This document shows positions 2,833 to 25,228 of a stretch of 64,000 nucleotides of DNA, one piece after another. The notes beneath the pieces are model-generated. The model saw only the letters and a list, made by a program, of their open reading frames with translations. It did no database searches and was not told the DNA's origin. The DNA comes from a virus (lineage: Duplodnaviria; Heunggongvirae; Uroviricota; Caudoviricetes). Position 1 is the stretch's first letter, and each line of letters begins with the position of its first letter. The DNA lies in the IMG/VR virus record IMGVR_UViG_3300046542_000259; one strand, written 5' to 3'. Both the position numbers and the translations under genes were made by a program.

Positions 2833-4512
2833 ATGGCAACGATTCAGAAAAATGTAAACCAAGTCACGGCCACTGGAGCCACCTCTCTCCTTGGAACGAA
2901 GCCGGATGGGAAACTTGCGTCCAAACCTGTGTCCGAGCTTGCCACGGCTGTCCAAGGAACTAAGGCAGATACAGCGATTCAACCAAGTGATATTGGAACC
3001 AGTGTCCAAGCTTACAACGCAAATTTAAATTCTGTGCCTGCCGAAGTAGCTGTTCGAGTCATTGAGTTTGATATCCGCATGTCTCAATTTGCTGGGGGTG
3101 CGGCATGGGATGATAGTACTGACGATACCCCAGCAATGGCAGCAGCCATCGCCTATTTCCAAACACTTGGTGGCTTAAACCAATATGAAGGCCAAAATTC
3201 CGCTGTACTACGTTTACCTCGTGGGGTCGGTCGTATATCCAACCTTGACCTAACTCTTGCTAAAAACGTAACCATTACCGGTCTAAGTGATGGTGCTACC
3301 ACTATTCGTAACATCAATAATAATACTTGCCTCAAGACTACAAACGTTACAGGTGTGAATGACTTGTTTCGTCTTAAATTGAAGGACTTTACCATAATCG
3401 GTCCCGGTAGGGCAAACACGAGTGCATTCGGTATTGACTTCTTCGCCGTTAATCACGGCAGCATCGAGAACGTGCGTGTATATTCTTGTCATGCCGCTAT
3501 GAGGTTTAAGAACAACTGGCAAACCCAAGTTATTCGTCCGATGATCGATGGCGGACCAACCGTTGGGAGCTTGTCTTGCATGGATGGTATCCAAATGCTC
3601 GACGGTCCCGGCTCCGTTGTGGAAAATTGTATCAAACTCAACGGAGGCGTCATCTCAGGGGTGGAGCGGTATGGCTTCCGAGGCGAGAGTGTTTGTGGGT
3701 CTCTTATTAGCGGACTGGAAATGCTGGCGTGCGGTAGTACGGCAATGTACTTAGGCGATAGCCCATCAGGGAAAGACCTAAAATGGTTTTCTGCTGTTGG
3801 ATTGATGTTCGACACATCAGGAGATTTGCTCATTATCAATAAGGGCTCATCTACGATAGCTGAGCAATTACATTTCTCCAGTCTCTGGATGGGCAATGCA
3901 ACAGCCGGAGCGGGCCAAGGCGATGCTATCCGTATAAATGGGCTAATAGACTCAACCTTTCAAGCTGACCTTATCAGCCTCGTGGACACAGCATTTGTAG
4001 CAAATGATTGTTCTAGATTGATGTTTGATTTCAGAAATATCAATGATTACGACAAATCTCTAGTCGGAGCCGTACCCATAATATTAAACAACAGCCAGAA
4101 TATGTCTGTTCGGGGAGGTCCGATGATTAAAAACACAGGCTCACCTGCTACCCTTGTTTTGGCAGAAACCGGGACCACTAATTATAGTAATATTCAAGGT
4201 ATTAACGGCGACGGTGGCATGACCATCATTGGCGCAAATAGCATCGTCAAGGGAAATATTGGGTATAAGACACATAACTCGGGCCTAGTCAATGTGCTAA
4301 CCACTACTACAAGCACGGTAGTAAATCATGGATTAGGCAGAACTCCTACAGATGGAGATATTATTGCCACACCAAAATTCAATATCGGCTCCGTTGGCGT
4401 CACTGATTTCTGGATCGACACCATCACAGCAACCCAATTCACGATTCACACAAACGCTGCACCATCAAGCAATCTTGGCTTCCACTGGCAAGCTGATGTT
4501 TCAAGAGGGTAA
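2833..4512 (+). CDS. Tailspike-like protein, probable beta-helix receptor-binding or depolymerase protein
   Basis: It follows the fibre genes. Repeated short beta-strand-like N/G/T-rich segments (NVTITGLSDGATTIRNINNN...) resemble pectate-lyase-type beta-helices. No catalytic motif was recognised. Confidence 0.35.
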   Translation: MATIQKNVNQVTATGATSLLGTKPDGKLASKPVSELATAVQGTKADTAIQPSDIGTSVQAYNANLNSVPAEVAVRVIEFDIRMSQFAGGAAWDDSTDDTPAMAAAIAYFQTLGGLNQYEGQNSAVLRLPRGVGRISNLDLTLAKNVTITGLSDGATTIRNINNNTCLKTTNVTGVNDLFRLKLKDFTIIGPGRANTSAFGIDFFAVNHGSIENVRVYSCHAAMRFKNNWQTQVIRPMIDGGPTVGSLSCMDGIQMLDGPGSVVENCIKLNGGVISGVERYGFRGESVCGSLISGLEMLACGSTAMYLGDSPSGKDLKWFSAVGLMFDTSGDLLIINKGSSTIAEQLHFSSLWMGNATAGAGQGDAIRINGLIDSTFQADLISLVDTAFVANDCSRLMFDFRNINDYDKSLVGAVPIILNNSQNMSVRGGPMIKNTGSPATLVLAETGTTNYSNIQGINGDGGMTIIGANSIVKGNIGYKTHNSGLVNVLTTTTSTVVNHGLGRTPTDGDIIATPKFNIGSVGVTDFWIDTITATQFTIHTNAAPSSNLGFHWQADVSRG

Positions 4513-13429: not shown

Positions 13430-13812
13430 CAATTAGAGCAAATTCGGAATGGCTTTACCATGGCACACTGTTTGCCACGGCGGTCCAAGATTCTTTTGGT
13501 ACGATCAAATTGACCATGACAAGGGGCACGTATGACGTTGAGCCTACTTCTGTCGGAGATTCATGGTTTTGGCAAGGCACTGACGAAGATTTCCTTTTAC
13601 ATTGGACCTTTGTCCAAGAAGTTGATCCTACCATCCCTTCGATCTGGATCAACGTGATTCGCTGGGCCGATGGAACAACGTCTTTTGATCATAGCGAGCC
13701 TTTCAAGAGCCGGGAAGAGGCTGTAACGGCGTTTAAAGCTGAGCCTTATGACATTGATACCAATGAGCCCTGTGAGCTTGTCGATACGGTCGAGGTGACT
13801 TGGCGTGGGTGA
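13426..13812 (+). CDS. Hypothetical protein
   Basis: Coupled ORF. Confidence 0.35.
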   Translation: MTIRANSEWLYHGTLFATAVQDSFGTIKLTMTRGTYDVEPTSVGDSWFWQGTDEDFLLHWTFVQEVDPTIPSIWINVIRWADGTTSFDHSEPFKSREEAVTAFKAEPYDIDTNEPCELVDTVEVTWRG

Positions 13813-14437
13813 AAAATATAGGATTATTGGCGACGTGCATGGAAAAATGGGCCAATACCTCGCCATCTTGGACCACGCCAAGATTAAAGGCATTGAGCGC
13901 TCGATTCAGGTAGGGGATTTCGGAATAGGATTTCAACCTAACCCTGTAGAACTTTATGACGTACACAACCACTGGTTTATTCGTGGCAACCATGATTCCC
14001 CAATGGGATGCCGTGACGAGCCTAATTACATCCCTGACGGGACGTTTTGGGAAAAAGAATCCATCATGTTCGTGGGCGGCGCAGTTTCCATCGATAAAGA
14101 ATATAGAACTCCCGGCGTGTCGTGGTGGGAAGATGAAGAGCTTTCCATGGAGGAGCTTTACAACATTTATGACAAATACGTGATGACCAAACCTCGTGTC
14201 ATGATCACTCACGAAACGCCTGAGTTTATCGCGGATCAAGTCATGGCTTCGGTGAGTCGTACCAAGTATGAAATATCGAGTAGAACTAGGCAGTGTTTCC
14301 AGTCCATGTTTGAAAGCTCTGGACACAAGCCGGACGAATGGTATTTTGGGCATTGGCACGTTAATTTTGATAGAGTCATCCTAGGCACTAGATTTGTATG
14401 CCTAAATGAGCTACACTATATAGATATTGAGTTATGA
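13805..14437 (+). CDS. Calcineurin-like metallophosphoesterase
   Basis: GDVHG, GDFGIG and GNHD motifs appear in order. GTG start. Confidence 0.5.
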   Translation: MGEKYRIIGDVHGKMGQYLAILDHAKIKGIERSIQVGDFGIGFQPNPVELYDVHNHWFIRGNHDSPMGCRDEPNYIPDGTFWEKESIMFVGGAVSIDKEYRTPGVSWWEDEELSMEELYNIYDKYVMTKPRVMITHETPEFIADQVMASVSRTKYEISSRTRQCFQSMFESSGHKPDEWYFGHWHVNFDRVILGTRFVCLNELHYIDIEL

Positions 14438-15550
14438 TTTAGGTAATCTACCGTACACCCAACCTGAAGGAATTTCTTCTTGTCTAGGATGTTTTTTACA
14501 GGTAATTCCATTATTTATCAAACATGTGGAAAAATCTCTATTTTTAAGAATTTTTGTTTTGCCTAAGTAAAAATTAACAGGTATTGGGCTGGTTTCATAT
14601 ATTTTTCTATTGATCCTTCCATTTGTTATCCAAATTTGTTTACGTCTCAAAACCCCTAATTTAAAACCTTCCGGTATAGGATCAATAGCTTCATGTCTAA
14701 TGTTCTCTTTTCCATTATTTATCCAAATAGTGCCAAAATTAGAGTTATTGAAACCAGAAGTATCTTTTTTAGTCATACCTCTATACCAATTATCTGGAAT
14801 TATAAAATCTTTTTCCACAGTTAAATTACTATATCCGTCAGTAATAGTAATTTTATTTAGCTTCGGATGCACCCAACCATTCTCATATCTTTGTAAAGTA
14901 TCAGCTCTATTTTTCTCCCTACCTTCAATTGTTTTTGAATAAATCATTCCATATTTTTCATTCATAGTTTCATGCATTTTTTCTATTATAGAATCTCTGA
15001 TTTCTGGTATTTTGGTAATATGATCTACTCCGTAATTTTTTAATATGGTATTTTTCACCTTTTCTTTACTTTCAGGTAGTTGTGCCCAAAAGTCTACGCC
15101 ATATCTTTCTCTACAGGTTTGTTTTGTTCTTTCAATTTGGATAATTAATTTGCTCTTCTTTTTATCATATTTTTCTGACAGGATTTTTAAAATTTCTTCT
15201 TCTATTAAAATGTTTTCATCTAAGTGATCGTCCAAGACCTTCTCACATTTTGCGTGTGTTCCAGATTTATTACCAACCCCGCCGGGGATTTGATTATAAT
15301 TGCTAGACAATTTTATAAAATCTAGTGTAACCAATTCTTCTTCTTTGTCAGAAGCTTCTTTAAGAGTATCAAAAATAAATAGAATTCTTTTATTAAAGTG
15401 TTCTCTACCATATTTCTTGATAGCTTGTTTAATAATATTACCAGAACCTAAATACGTGTCGTGAATATTTTTAGTTCTATGGATTCCTATGTAAATTTTT
15501 CCATTGACTAAATTAGTTGTCTCGTATACTGTGTAATAAATTTTTTGCAT
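14432..15550 (-). CDS. GIY-YIG homing endonuclease (Seg/I-TevI-like) with C-terminal NUMOD-like repeats
   Basis: The N-terminus reads YYTVYETTNLVNGKIYIGIHRT. The C-terminus has repeated xWINNG/WITNG/LINNG motifs. The gene sits on the minus strand within a + region, and its locus is very AT-rich (14.4-15.7 kb). Confidence 0.7.
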   Translation of the reverse strand: MQKIYYTVYETTNLVNGKIYIGIHRTKNIHDTYLGSGNIIKQAIKKYGREHFNKRILFIFDTLKEASDKEEELVTLDFIKLSSNYNQIPGGVGNKSGTHAKCEKVLDDHLDENILIEEEILKILSEKYDKKKSKLIIQIERTKQTCRERYGVDFWAQLPESKEKVKNTILKNYGVDHITKIPEIRDSIIEKMHETMNEKYGMIYSKTIEGREKNRADTLQRYENGWVHPKLNKITITDGYSNLTVEKDFIIPDNWYRGMTKKDTSGFNNSNFGTIWINNGKENIRHEAIDPIPEGFKLGVLRRKQIWITNGRINRKIYETSPIPVNFYLGKTKILKNRDFSTCLINNGITCKKHPRQEEIPSGWVYGRLPKS

Positions 15551-17548: not shown

Positions 17549-18124
17549 TTGAATAAAGATGAATTAATAAGTCAAACCGTATTGAAAGAACTGTTAGAGT
17601 ACAACCCAGAATCCGGCAAGCTTTACTGGAAGAGGCGGGACCTATCTTGGTTCGAGGATGGCCCAAGATTTTCGGCTCAAGCCATCTGTAATGTGTGGAA
17701 TGCTAATAGAGCCGAAAAAGAAGCTTTTACTAAGCTTAACGCTCAAGGCTATTTTGTCGGAGTATTGTCTAGAAACCATTTTTTAGGTAAGGAATTTCGG
17801 GCAAATAGAATAATTTGGTTGTGGAATTATGGTTATTTGCCACCGGTGGTGGAACATATTAATGGGATTAGGTCTGACAATAGGCTTCATAACCTCCGAG
17901 ACGCCACACAATTAATAAACATGCAGAACGTGGCGCGAAGTATTAAGAATAAAAGTGGGACTACAGGAATTTTTTGGCGGGAAGATAAGCAGAGATGGGT
18001 AGCATATATTAATCAAAATGGTGTACGTTACTATTTAGGCCATTTTTTAAACGAACAAGACGCTATCAATGCAAGAAAACATGCTGCTACAGAAATGGGT
18101 TTTGGTCCCAACCATGGAAAATAA
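17549..18124 (+). CDS. HNH (HNH_3-type) homing endonuclease with a C-terminal AP2-like DNA-binding domain
   Basis: EHINGIRSDNRLHNLR, then GIFWREDKQRWVAYINQNGVRYYLGHF...AINARKHAA. TTG start. Confidence 0.55.
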   Translation: MNKDELISQTVLKELLEYNPESGKLYWKRRDLSWFEDGPRFSAQAICNVWNANRAEKEAFTKLNAQGYFVGVLSRNHFLGKEFRANRIIWLWNYGYLPPVVEHINGIRSDNRLHNLRDATQLINMQNVARSIKNKSGTTGIFWREDKQRWVAYINQNGVRYYLGHFLNEQDAINARKHAATEMGFGPNHGK

Positions 18125-18135
18125 GGATTTAAATA

Positions 18136-18549
18136 ATGACTATTAATTATAAGTGGCTCACATTCAACTGTGTCACGCTGTTTATCATGGCTTTTTTAAT
18201 TCAGTTCTACGACGTTTTTAATCTCGTCTGGATCATGGATAAAACACATGTCACCCTTGGCATTACAGCGATCTACTTCCTATGTTCTGGTTATCTAGGA
18301 TGCATGGGCGACAAAGCTAATTTCAAAGCCGTGTCGTATTACTGCTCCCGCCTTCCCGCATTAGGGCTTATTGGCACATTGACCGCGATCTATATGATGA
18401 TGGATGGAGCAAAAGACTTGGAAGCGTTCCGCGCCAATATTATGCCAGAACTAGCTCCGGTGTTCCTAACCGCGCTTTTCGGCATTGGTTCCAGCTATCT
18501 CATGGATATGCAAATCGGCTCTTGCTTTTCTCAGTACGAGAAAGAATAA
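18136..18549 (+). CDS. MotA/TolQ/ExbB-family-like small membrane protein (minimal)
   Basis: Four hydrophobic segments. LPALGLIGTLTAI matches the conserved LPF[VI]GL[LF]GTV[WI]G signature of TolQ/ExbB as I recall it. Confidence 0.4.
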   Translation: MTINYKWLTFNCVTLFIMAFLIQFYDVFNLVWIMDKTHVTLGITAIYFLCSGYLGCMGDKANFKAVSYYCSRLPALGLIGTLTAIYMMMDGAKDLEAFRANIMPELAPVFLTALFGIGSSYLMDMQIGSCFSQYEKE

Positions 18550-18579
18550 ATACCTCTAAGTTTCAAGGGATTTAGGCCA

Positions 18580-19167
18580 ATGATGCCGAAATCAACAGCT
18601 ACGGCGTACATCGATGTCCTGACCACTTTGTTTGTCATCTTCGTAACAATGTTTCTCTTATCTGAGGCTAAGAAAGCCGAAGAAAAAGGGAATCACATCG
18701 ATCCGTCTCAGTACCTCATAGAATTGACGTGGGACGACGATTCAGTTAACGATGTCGATCTTTGGGTGTCTAATGAAAAGGGTGAGATCGTTTTCTTCCG
18801 AGATCGTGAAATAGGCGGTATGACTCTTGATACTGACAATATGGGTATCAATAACCGTATCAAAAATGAATTGGGTGAAATGAAAAGTGCTCCCGGCAGG
18901 CGTGAAGTCATTAGTATTAGAGGTATTGTGCCGGGAACTTACACCGTCAATGTCATGATGTATGCCAATAGAACGCATGAGACGGAAAAAGTAAAGGTCG
19001 TGGTTCGTAAGCTTAATCCTTATAAGGAAATCACGGAACGCAGCGTTGATCTACTGGATGATGGTACGGAAGAAACTATAACCCAATTTACTGTGGATGA
19101 AAAAGGTAATTTCATTTCAAAGAATGAAACTGACAAGGTTTCTCTTTTCGCAAGGTTAAAGACATGA
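18580..19167 (+). CDS. ExbD/TolR-like N-terminal membrane anchor fused to an unrecognised beta-rich domain
   Basis: AYIDVLTTLFVIFVTMFLL resembles the ExbD/TolR transmembrane helix (FIDVMLVLLIIFMV) including the Asp. The remaining ~150 aa are unrelated. Confidence 0.35.
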   Translation: MMPKSTATAYIDVLTTLFVIFVTMFLLSEAKKAEEKGNHIDPSQYLIELTWDDDSVNDVDLWVSNEKGEIVFFRDREIGGMTLDTDNMGINNRIKNELGEMKSAPGRREVISIRGIVPGTYTVNVMMYANRTHETEKVKVVVRKLNPYKEITERSVDLLDDGTEETITQFTVDEKGNFISKNETDKVSLFARLKT

Positions 19168-19631
19168 TTTTTAGTATCGCTATATTCGGCCTTGTCCTAC
19201 TCACGCTTATTATTCTTGCTAAGTATAATTGGAAAATGGCAGTTGCCGCACTTATTCCGCTGACTTACTTAGGATACTATCAAGCCGTTACAGAAGTCCC
19301 AAAGTATTTTGGATATGCCGTTCCACTTAATTTCACTGAATTGGATCAAGCCAGATTTCTTGGCGGGACAATGAATGAGAAAACGATTTCCATTCTAATC
19401 ATGGAAAAAGATAAAACGGAACCGCGTCTAATCAGTATCCCTAATACGGAACAGAATAAAAAGGCTTTCGAGCAATTGCAGAAGACGGCGAAAAACGGTG
19501 CAGCCGTGCTTCGTAAAGGTGGCAAGAAGAGTGATAAACAGGGAGAGGGCGGTAATGCAACGCTCAACGCCCACGGCGATATTGAATCAGTACCTATGAA
19601 GGAACAGGAGATTATTAGGAAAGATGGCTGA
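19164..19631 (+). CDS. Membrane-anchored hypothetical protein
   Basis: Coupled ATGA start. N-terminal hydrophobic spans are followed by a Lys-rich soluble tail. Confidence 0.3.
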   Translation: MIFSIAIFGLVLLTLIILAKYNWKMAVAALIPLTYLGYYQAVTEVPKYFGYAVPLNFTELDQARFLGGTMNEKTISILIMEKDKTEPRLISIPNTEQNKKAFEQLQKTAKNGAAVLRKGGKKSDKQGEGGNATLNAHGDIESVPMKEQEIIRKDG

Positions 19632-24211: not shown

Positions 24212-24396
24212 TTAAACTATATCTCAAGGCTATCGCCGCAGCGTTTATAGGTATTGGGGCGTATGGTTACGTCGCCCCGGCCTACATTAGCTCAACCGAT
24301 AATGTTGAAGTCCTAATTGGTGTGCTGGTATGTCTATCCGCTCCCGTCGTAATGTTTTCAATTTTTAAAAAGGAGATTACAAAATATGTTTCTTAA
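24208..24396 (+). CDS. Small membrane protein
   Basis: GTG start coupled to the previous stop. Two hydrophobic spans. Confidence 0.3.
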   Translation: MIKLYLKAIAAAFIGIGAYGYVAPAYISSTDNVEVLIGVLVCLSAPVVMFSIFKKEITKYVS

Positions 24397-25228
24397 GAAG
24401 ATCGCCGCTCTCCTCCTGATCAGCGTTTCAGTTGTAGCATGTTCCAAGGTTCCGGCTGGTAATGTGGGCGTTAAGGTTTATCTGCTTGGTCAGGAGAAGG
24501 GTGTTGATAAAGAAATTCTAGGGCCGGGGCGTTATTGGATCGGAATGAATGAAGACTTGTTCCTATTCCCCACCTTTACTCAGAATTATTCCTTCACCGA
24601 AGAAGGTGAGAGAATGATTTTCCAGACCAAGGATGGTATGACGGTAAAGACTGGTGTTGGCGTTTCTTACTCCATCAATCCTGATAAGGTCTCTGATATT
24701 TTCCAGAAGTATCGGAAAGGTGTTGACGAAATCACTAGCATGGTATTGCGTAACATGATTCGTGACGCTTTTAACACTGAAGCCTCGACTCGTCCTATCG
24801 AATCGGTGTATGGCGGTGGTAAGGCCGCACTTATCGCAGCTGTTGAAAAGAGAGTCCGGGAACAGGTCCAGCCTATCGGAATCAATGTTGAGCGTATTTT
24901 CTTGATCGGTGAGCTTGAACTTCCTCCTCAGATCGTTGAACGGATCAATGCCACAATTGATGCACAACAGAAGACTCAGCAGAAACTCTTCGAAGTTGAT
25001 CAGCAGAAAGCGGAAGCGGCCAAGAGAATTGAAGATGCAAAGGGAGATGCTGAATCTATTAGGCTACGCTCCGAAGCAGAAGCTAAAGCTAATAAAATTC
25101 TAGCCGAAAGCTTGACTAGTGATTTGGTAAAATATAAAATGATTGAAAAGTGGAATGGATCGACGCCGAAGGTTACGGGTGGTGGTTCCCAAATTCTGAT
25201 CGAAGACTCTGAACTACTGAAAGAATAG
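24386..25228 (+). CDS. SPFH/band-7 (HflK/C-, stomatin-like) lipoprotein
   Basis: Lipoprotein-type signal LLISVSVVAC|S. An SPFH-like core (VGVKVYLLGQEKGVD...) is followed by a charged coiled-coil tail (QQKTQQKLFEVDQQKAEAAKRIEDAKGDAESIRLRSEAEAKA). Confidence 0.5.
   Translation: MFLKKIAALLLISVSVVACSKVPAGNVGVKVYLLGQEKGVDKEILGPGRYWIGMNEDLFLFPTFTQNYSFTEEGERMIFQTKDGMTVKTGVGVSYSINPDKVSDIFQKYRKGVDEITSMVLRNMIRDAFNTEASTRPIESVYGGGKAALIAAVEKRVREQVQPIGINVERIFLIGELELPPQIVERINATIDAQQKTQQKLFEVDQQKAEAAKRIEDAKGDAESIRLRSEAEAKANKILAESLTSDLVKYKMIEKWNGSTPKVTGGGSQILIEDSELLKE

Follow-up and report, generated by a model that had tools for sequence, protein, structure and literature searches.

A stretch of viral DNA of 64,000 nucleotides (nt) (Caudoviricetes; IMG/VR record IMGVR_UViG_3300046542_000259), referred to here as the window, carries three consecutive genes for small membrane proteins, which we call A, B and C (Table 1). 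A first-pass annotation, made without database searches, had read A and B as a phage-borne TolQ/ExbB-like and TolR/ExbD-like pair accompanied by a third anchored protein, and all three open reading frames (ORFs) were present with the peptides it had quoted. The same products of 137, 195 and 155 amino acids (aa) were given by independent gene callers on other assemblies of the same phage. The JGI gene call for A is N-terminally truncated (120 aa, with the missing part corresponding to window positions 18136-18186), and in the GenBank record of Rhizobium phage RHph_N3_19 (locus L001, 2559-2648) only 113 aa are annotated for A, although the ORF is 143 aa long and includes the conserved N-terminus. 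The 137-aa start was preferred because the N-terminal residues missing from the JGI call are conserved in homologs, and truncated public calls of A have probably helped to conceal the family.

Shine-Dalgarno-like sequences precede all three starts: AAGGA at 18123-18127 for A, AAGGGA at 18565-18570 for B and a purine run for C. The start codon of C lies within an ATGA overlap with the stop codon of B, while A and B are separated here by 30 nt with no overlap. Thus, of the translational linkage proposed at first pass for the three genes, the B-C coupling stands, but A and B are not overlapped in the window. In related loci the junctions are mostly overlaps of 1-20 nt, including A-B in most, and these values are upper bounds, as longest-ORF starts were used.

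Table 1. Features of the A-B-C locus, in window positions
Feature	Position	Strand	Description
Gene A	18136-18549	+	137 aa; four-helix "mini" MotA/TolQ/ExbB-family protein without a cytoplasmic domain
A residues 73-128, TM3-TM4 hairpin (LPALGLIGT...FLTALFG)	18352-18519	+	Putative pore-lining core, conserved
Gene B	18580-19167	+	195 aa; short N-tail, one transmembrane (TM) helix with Asp, linker and beta-sandwich (predicted periplasmic)
Codon GAT, B Asp12	18613-18615	+	Candidate ion-carrying aspartate; aligned to the MotB/ZorB Asp
B residues 45-182, predicted TerD/PPC-like beta-sandwich	18712-19125	+	Acidic cluster (probable Ca2+ site); predicted periplasmic
Gene C	19164-19631	+	155 aa orphan; two TM helices, predicted periplasmic domain, low-complexity linker and conserved C-terminal peptide
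C residues 138-155, strand-like and Pro/Lys motif (GDIESVPMKEQEIIRKDG)	19575-19628	+	Candidate docking peptide

Gene A and the MotA/TolQ/ExbB superfamily

The A protein of the window matched the Pfam family PF01618 with an E-value (E) of 1.3e-4 and 22.1 bits, in a match spanning residues 62-122 and the model core. When 1.84 billion representatives were searched exhaustively with a profile, 96 relatives were recovered, 91 of which were aligned. All 96 are 92-175 aa long, and A therefore belongs to a coherent family of "mini" proteins rather than to a collection of fragments. PF01618 was matched at E<=0.01 by 82 of the 91 aligned members (best E 3.5e-11), as it had been by seven of eight members of an earlier, smaller set, and no other Pfam family was matched by more than one member. 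When the 91-sequence profile was compared with all PDB chains, the top 23 matches were stator A subunits aligned over the same two-helix hairpin, with best E-values of 9.3e-7 for MotA (8gqy), 5.4e-6 for ZorA, 6e-5 for PomA, 1.7e-4 for TolQ and 0.02 for ExbB; with an earlier profile, 20 of 22 matches had been stator A subunits at the same hairpin. This region aligns to residues 140-205 of MotA, 128-194 of ZorA and 123-186 of TolQ. A fold search with A likewise showed a membrane-domain fold in agreement with that of the MotA/TolQ/ExbB superfamily, reduced to the ring-forming membrane core common to ZorA and ExbB, and the sole viral structures like A in BFVD were two proteins of 147 and 113 aa, the lengths of A genes of Rhizobium phages. 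Collectively, these data bear out the family assignment made at first pass and identify A, by sequence and fold, as a genuine but minimal member of the superfamily.

The residues that are most conserved in the family include those of the ion path of known stators. In an alignment of A with PomA, T81 corresponds to T158, T112 to T185 and A113 to T186. T81 is Thr in 86 and Ser in four of the 91 sequences, T112 is Thr in 74, and position 113, an Ala in the window, is Thr in 79 and Ser in seven. In ZorAB, the Asp of ZorB is faced by the equivalent Thr/Ser pair, which acts as the ion filter (PMC11946911). Three glycines are similarly retained (G77 in 88/91, G80 and G116 in 90/91 each). Two further positions, D35 at the predicted periplasmic mouth (together with T37; 18238-18246) and Q126 at the cytoplasmic end of TM4 (18511-18513), were kept in 90/91 and 88/91 sequences, respectively, and no counterpart could be assigned to either among known stators. 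A parallel between D35 and the Ca2+ site of ZorA was considered and set aside, given that the ZorA site is in a cytoplasmic membrane-proximal domain and D35 is predicted to be periplasmic. The TM2-TM3 loop of A is only about 15 residues long, and the cytoplasmic domain is absent.

Searches of more specialized collections gave nothing that we credit. PHROGs matches of A and C were at noise level (for example, a holin at E 0.045), as were the MotP and PomA matches of the cassette proteins in NCBIfam, and a PADLOC ZorA2 match of A (E 0.012) was not significant and is not evidence of membership in Zorya. B had no PADLOC match.

Genes B and C and the predicted topology

The N-terminal helix of B had been likened at first pass to that of ExbD/TolR, including the essential Asp. 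The Asp-bearing helix was confirmed. In Pfam, PF02472 (ExbD) was not matched, and a sub-threshold match to MotB_plug (PF13677; residues 8-33, E 9.5e-4, 19.1 bits where the cut-off is 24) was found instead, shared by three to four members of the B family only. A 35-member B profile gave weak matches to the PDB (E 0.3-1.2), four of the ten being the TM helices of MotB, ZorB (twice) and ExbD, each with the family Asp aligned on the catalytic Asp. This residue, Asp12, is invariant in 42 of 42 distinct homologs and lies toward the N-terminal end of the helix, which is predicted to be cytoplasmic. The equivalent ZorB mutation, D26N, abolishes Zorya function (PMC11946911). On the basis of the 25-residue helix match, the gene adjacency and the invariant Asp, we read B as a protein like the stator B subunits, with its homology to stator B subunits less firmly established than that of A to A subunits.

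The remainder of B is beta-rich and unrelated to known B subunits, as had been proposed at first pass. In an AlphaFold2 model (pLDDT 79.9), a TM helix (residues 5-27) is followed by a poorly ordered linker (residues 28-39) and by a beta-sandwich modeled with good confidence, for which a fold search suggests a TerD/PPC-like architecture. Across the family the distance from the helix to the first conserved strand is 22-29 residues, which would hold the head close to the membrane, atop A, in an arrangement nearer to ExbD/TolR than to MotB. Conserved or near-invariant residues (W51, D58, D60, L61, P66, L83, D86, G89, E109 and R114) include an acidic cluster typical of Ca2+-binding sandwiches, and a Ca2+ site is probable from this pattern; the segment "WD..sD.DLy..P.G" is a match to the Ca2+-binding jelly-roll found in archaeal subtilisin-like proteases. 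In Pfam, the predicted periplasmic part of B matched no OmpA or ExbD domain, and the C-terminal domain gave no significant match to the TerD family (PF02342).

The C protein was expected from the first-pass annotation to have an N-terminal anchor and ATGA coupling to B. The coupling was observed as described above, while the anchor proved to be two hydrophobic helices rather than one, with a basic loop between them. Among 35 homologs, C is characterized by an "LGYP" turn, an "IY ... EPR-x-x-x-x-P" block with a helix after it, a linker of low complexity and a C-terminal peptide in which K153 is at least 90% conserved and is preceded by a hydrophobic-alternating segment, with Pro residues. The single sequence had no match in Pfam, NCBIfam, PHROGs or PADLOC and the 35-member profile had none in the PDB; neither a TonB_C/TolA_C domain nor a conserved His was found. 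We infer that the C-terminal peptide may dock on B or on a component of the host envelope.

Membrane topology was predicted from family-averaged charge counts (positive-inside). For A, a basic N-terminus and TM2-TM3 loop (inside) and acidic TM1-TM2 and TM3-TM4 loops (outside) indicate an N-in, MotA-like protein with four TM helices, in line with the four hydrophobic segments noted at first pass. The basic N-tail of B makes it N-in, and the basic loop between the helices of C (K+R 1.66 vs D+E 0.24) is assigned to the inside and the soluble domain of C, therefore, to the outside. Given these charge patterns, all of the extramembrane mass of A, B and C is predicted to be periplasmic. The arrangement is compatible with the 5:2 stator architecture: both proteins are N-in, A with four helices and B with an Asp close to the cytoplasmic end of its helix.

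Distribution and genomic setting of the cassette

Homologs of B with 25-47% identity were found in Rhizobium phages belonging to three genome types, represented by 25 deposited records (~59, ~68, ~155 and ~171 kb) in which all copies are annotated as "hypothetical protein", and in 39 IMG/VR viral contigs. The deposited records include the cultured phages P10VF, RHph_N3_19 and RHph_I1_18, whose hosts are known. With iterated hidden Markov models, 47 loci were assembled, in which A was detected upstream of B in 42 and C downstream of B in 44; the loci without a match to A or C are at contig ends or belong to a divergent, still four-helix, A subgroup. B is directly 3´ of A in most of the 42 A-bearing loci, and an intervening stretch is present in four (L011, L017, L030 and L042). 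In L011 this stretch encodes a putative metallophosphoesterase, showing that gene insertions occur while the set stays together. Grouping of the loci at 70% B identity gave 32 lineages, over which no fourth conserved gene was found: only A, B and C recur, and no flanking family is present in more than four groups. As the A-B-C order is kept over 32 groups among which B identity is at most 70%, the three-gene locus is beyond chance. Hosts or bins, where known, are diderm Proteobacteria. We conclude that A-B-C is a conserved mobile cassette of many unrelated phages and some bacterial chromosomes, in which A and B are strictly co-inherited with C.

The bacterial occurrences came from a scan of 185,579 species genomes with short patterns derived from phage-type B, from which the frequency of the cassette in bacteria cannot be inferred. 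Four loci were recovered, all in metagenome-assembled genomes, and one of these is a 67.9 kb phage-like contig. Two loci, L045 (5109-7190; Acetobacteraceae) and L046 (5247-7177; Alphaproteobacteria), are among ordinary chromosomal genes, which are a nickel transporter, a PQQ dehydrogenase and a molybdoenzyme at one locus and an aminotransferase, a decarboxylase and ABC-2/HlyD genes at the other. The longest A ORFs in L045 and L046 are 274 and 248 aa, and in the L045 protein ~90 residues are inserted between TM2 and TM3, where canonical family members have their cytoplasmic domain. The phage cassette thus looks like a minimized form of a bacterial A-B-C system, and the L045 and L046 triads may represent its ancestral form.

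The window also encodes rIIA, rIIB, DNA ligase, RNA ligase and helicase genes. This early-gene repertoire agrees with the earlier description of the virus as T4-like, but its lineage does not, as the nearest characterized relatives of rIIA are in ~150 kb Rhodobacterales phages (37-42% identity). The cassette is missing from these nearest rIIA relatives, and no near-identical DNA was found among deposited phages. With a GC content of 40-45%, the cassette resembles the surrounding DNA, and the genes around it are small, unannotated early-region genes and homing endonucleases. The T4 late promoter (TATAAATA) does not occur near the cassette, where the numbers of sigma-70-like and terminator-like sites match those expected from shuffled sequences, so the timing of expression is not readable from the sequence.

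Interpretation, alternatives and neighboring genes

Ion-driven 5:2 motors serve in nutrient import, envelope integrity and Zorya immunity as well as in flagella and gliding, and each known type combines a conserved membrane core with a different output. The cassette shares features with several of them. Its composition recalls ExbB-ExbD-TonB and TolQ-TolR-TolA, in which a ring subunit and a single-pass Asp-bearing subunit are joined by a third protein that is periplasmic and anchored in the inner membrane; A has G-x-x-G-T and TM Thr motifs that correspond to the family consensus, and B has the ExbD/TolR layout, in which a short cytoplasmic tail and a TM helix are followed by a ~25-residue linker and a periplasmic domain of 100-150 aa. 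However, A has four TM helices rather than three and is without the cytoplasmic helical domain, the predicted B head is a TerD/PPC-like sandwich instead of an ExbD domain, C has two TM helices and is without the His-containing SHLS-type helix or a TonB_C/TolA_C domain, and the genes are carried by a phage. The likeness to MotAB and PomAB is seen in the best profile matches of A, its four-TM N-in topology, the Thr residues aligned to PomA T158 and T185 and the sub-threshold MotB_plug match of B. Unlike these proteins, A is without the FliG-contacting TM2-TM3 cytoplasmic domain, the Pro173 position of MotA is not conserved, B is without an OmpA-like peptidoglycan-binding domain or detected plug, and no flagellar genes surround the cassette. 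ZorAB, a non-flagellar 5:2 motor of phage-host conflict, also resembles A-B, with ZorB helices among the weak matches of B and a Thr/Ser ion filter facing the Asp. Yet A, at 137 aa, is without the long cytoplasmic tail of ZorA, B is without the peptidoglycan-binding domain of ZorB, ZorC, ZorD and ZorE partners (or any other conserved neighbor in the 32 groups) are absent, and the carrier is the phage and not the host. Finally, the B sandwich differs from the Ca2+-binding sandwiches of the TerD/PPC type in being fused to a stator-type TM helix.

In light of these comparisons, we consider it fairly likely that A-B is a miniature, self-contained relative of the 5:2 ion-driven stators (MotAB, PomAB, ExbBD, TolQR and ZorAB) that acts in the periplasm. 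A ring of A, probably a pentamer, would surround a dimer of B, and H+ or Na+ would flow down the membrane gradient by way of A T81, T112/113 and B Asp12, driving relative rotation or a conformational cycle. Because A is without a cytoplasmic domain and the soluble domains of B and C are predicted to be periplasmic, the output would be delivered in the periplasm, through the acidic, probably Ca2+-binding sandwich of B held ~25 residues above the membrane. C would be a third membrane-anchored partner, similar to TonB or TolA in function and not homologous to them.

Several observations weigh against this proposal. The A protein of the window scores 0.8 bits below the PF01618 gathering cut-off (22.9), and as a single sequence it is not significantly similar to any PDB entry (E about 0.6), so its first recognition was at the edge of detectability. 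The equivalent of MotA Pro173 is Pro in only 17 of 91 A sequences. For B, the helix match is short (25 residues) and sub-threshold, the ExbD model is not matched and no plug helix was detected. TerD proteins are cytoplasmic, and the fold match alone is thus no proof of a periplasmic site. The 5:2 stoichiometry, ion flow, Ca2+ binding and A-B-C contacts are proposals. No lysis, receptor or defense gene is next to the cassette in the 32 lineages, and the cassette is not tied to any phenotype.

Alternative explanations account for parts of these data. The conserved ion-path residues and Asp12 would also be expected of a regulated ion leak, in which A-B is a gated H+/Na+ channel that depolarizes the inner membrane for holin and lysis timing or for host shutdown, with the B sandwich and C as gate or sensor. 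Consistent with such a leak, the cytoplasmic output domain is absent, the linker is short (22-29 residues) and no MotB-type plug helix was found; a plug-less MotB together with MotA leaks protons and arrests growth. However, holin, endolysin and spanin genes are never adjacent in the 32 lineages, chromosomal copies among housekeeping genes are hard to fit with a lethal leak unless it is tightly gated, and the fact that two separate periplasmic domains are strongly conserved points to a specific partner. We regard a leak as unlikely. More improbable is a role as poison or mimic, with the mini A or B entering host TolQR, ExbBD, MotAB or ZorAB and inactivating them, either as counter-defense against Zorya or as a block to the Tol- or Ton-dependent entry of competitors. 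The restriction of A to a core that ZorA and ExbB have in common, the weak ZorA2 match (E 0.012) and the existence of other kinds of anti-Zorya genes in phages would suit this explanation, but a decoy needs no B of its own with an invariant Asp, no filter Thr residues and no dedicated third protein, and the same triad is found in bacterial chromosomes.

The loss of the cytoplasmic domain of A, the variable Pro173 position and the marginal Pfam scores throughout could instead indicate a degenerate relic, that is, stator-derived proteins that no longer conduct ions and form a passive scaffold or a receptor-masking complex. The near-invariant residues are, however, those of the ion path (B Asp12 in 42/42, A T81 as T/S in 90/91 and position 113 as T/S in 86/91), and their retention in 91 and 42 divergent sequences indicates selection for conduction, which makes a relic very improbable. 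The least probable explanation, that A and B are small membrane proteins without relation to stators, whose hydrophobic helices resemble stator motifs by chance, is effectively refuted by the PDB profile matches, the occurrence of PF01618 in 82 of 91 members and the fold search.

The role of the proposed stator relative is the least certain step. We suggest an accessory, envelope-directed function in diderm hosts, either superinfection exclusion at the inner membrane and periplasm or maintenance or remodeling of the envelope. A role in competition or at the envelope is favored over one in core lysis or assembly because the cassette is accessory, is absent from the nearest relatives and moves between genome types, and further because it is surrounded by small early genes and homing endonucleases, is directed to the periplasmic side and is found with diderm proteobacterial hosts. 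In its fullest form, which we put forward tentatively and consider rather doubtful as a whole, the proposal would make A-B-C the first ion-driven rotary motor to be encoded by a virus and, among known 5:2 machines, the smallest self-sufficient one, with a ring of ~137-aa subunits, a ~195-aa axle, a new Ca2+-binding head and a new third subunit. Derived from a bacterial A-B-C system and placed by virulent phages in the inner membrane of the host, it would use motive force for mechanical work in the periplasm, repelling or shearing the injection apparatus of superinfecting phages or remodeling the envelope.

No description of a phage-encoded stator or a TerD-stator fusion was found among the 8 million papers searched. 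In a recent survey of MotAB and related non-flagellar systems, phages come up only in the context of Zorya defense, and the known anti-Zorya genes encode unrelated proteins. The membrane core is of a known kind, while the minimal size, the TerD-like head of B, the orphan third subunit and the carriage by phages are new. If the proposal is correct, the cassette would be the first such module in virulent phages, which would tap the host membrane potential for an envelope task that is absent from current phage biology. It would also be a natural minimal motor, with core helices only and with a third partner and a periplasmic output domain that are both new, and is attractive for learning what a motor core requires. 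The "hypothetical protein" labels of the deposited copies can be corrected, and the cultured Rhizobium phages with known hosts make the cassette directly testable.

Several neighboring genes are of separate interest. Directly 5´ of A, an HNH homing-type endonuclease (17549-18124, plus strand; Pfam HNH_3 E 1.6e-9, phrog_99 E 1e-52), whose stop codon is inside the ribosome-binding region of A, may mark a mobile insertion beside the cassette. A SegE-like GIY-YIG endonuclease with DUF7487 (14432-15550, minus strand), with a GC content of only 29% vs ~40% around it, looks like a second mobile endonuclease. Two adjacent large ORFs at 1081-2799 and 2833-4512 (plus strand; 572 and 559 aa) were without any PHROG match at E<=1e-5. 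The phage also has, about 5 kb from the cassette, a gene for a membrane-scaffold protein of the SPFH/Band-7 (stomatin/prohibitin-like) type (24386-25228, plus strand; Pfam Band_7 E 2.8e-24), which is a further unusual membrane-directed accessory gene. A calcineurin-like metallophosphoesterase gene is present ~3.7 kb 5´ of the cassette (13805-14437, plus strand), and metallophosphoesterases, as judged by annotation or by inspection of N-terminal motifs, were noted in L011 (3453-3980, between A and B), upstream of the cassette in L003 (596-1213) and downstream of it in L001 (4823-5584), which could be coincidence or a loose association.

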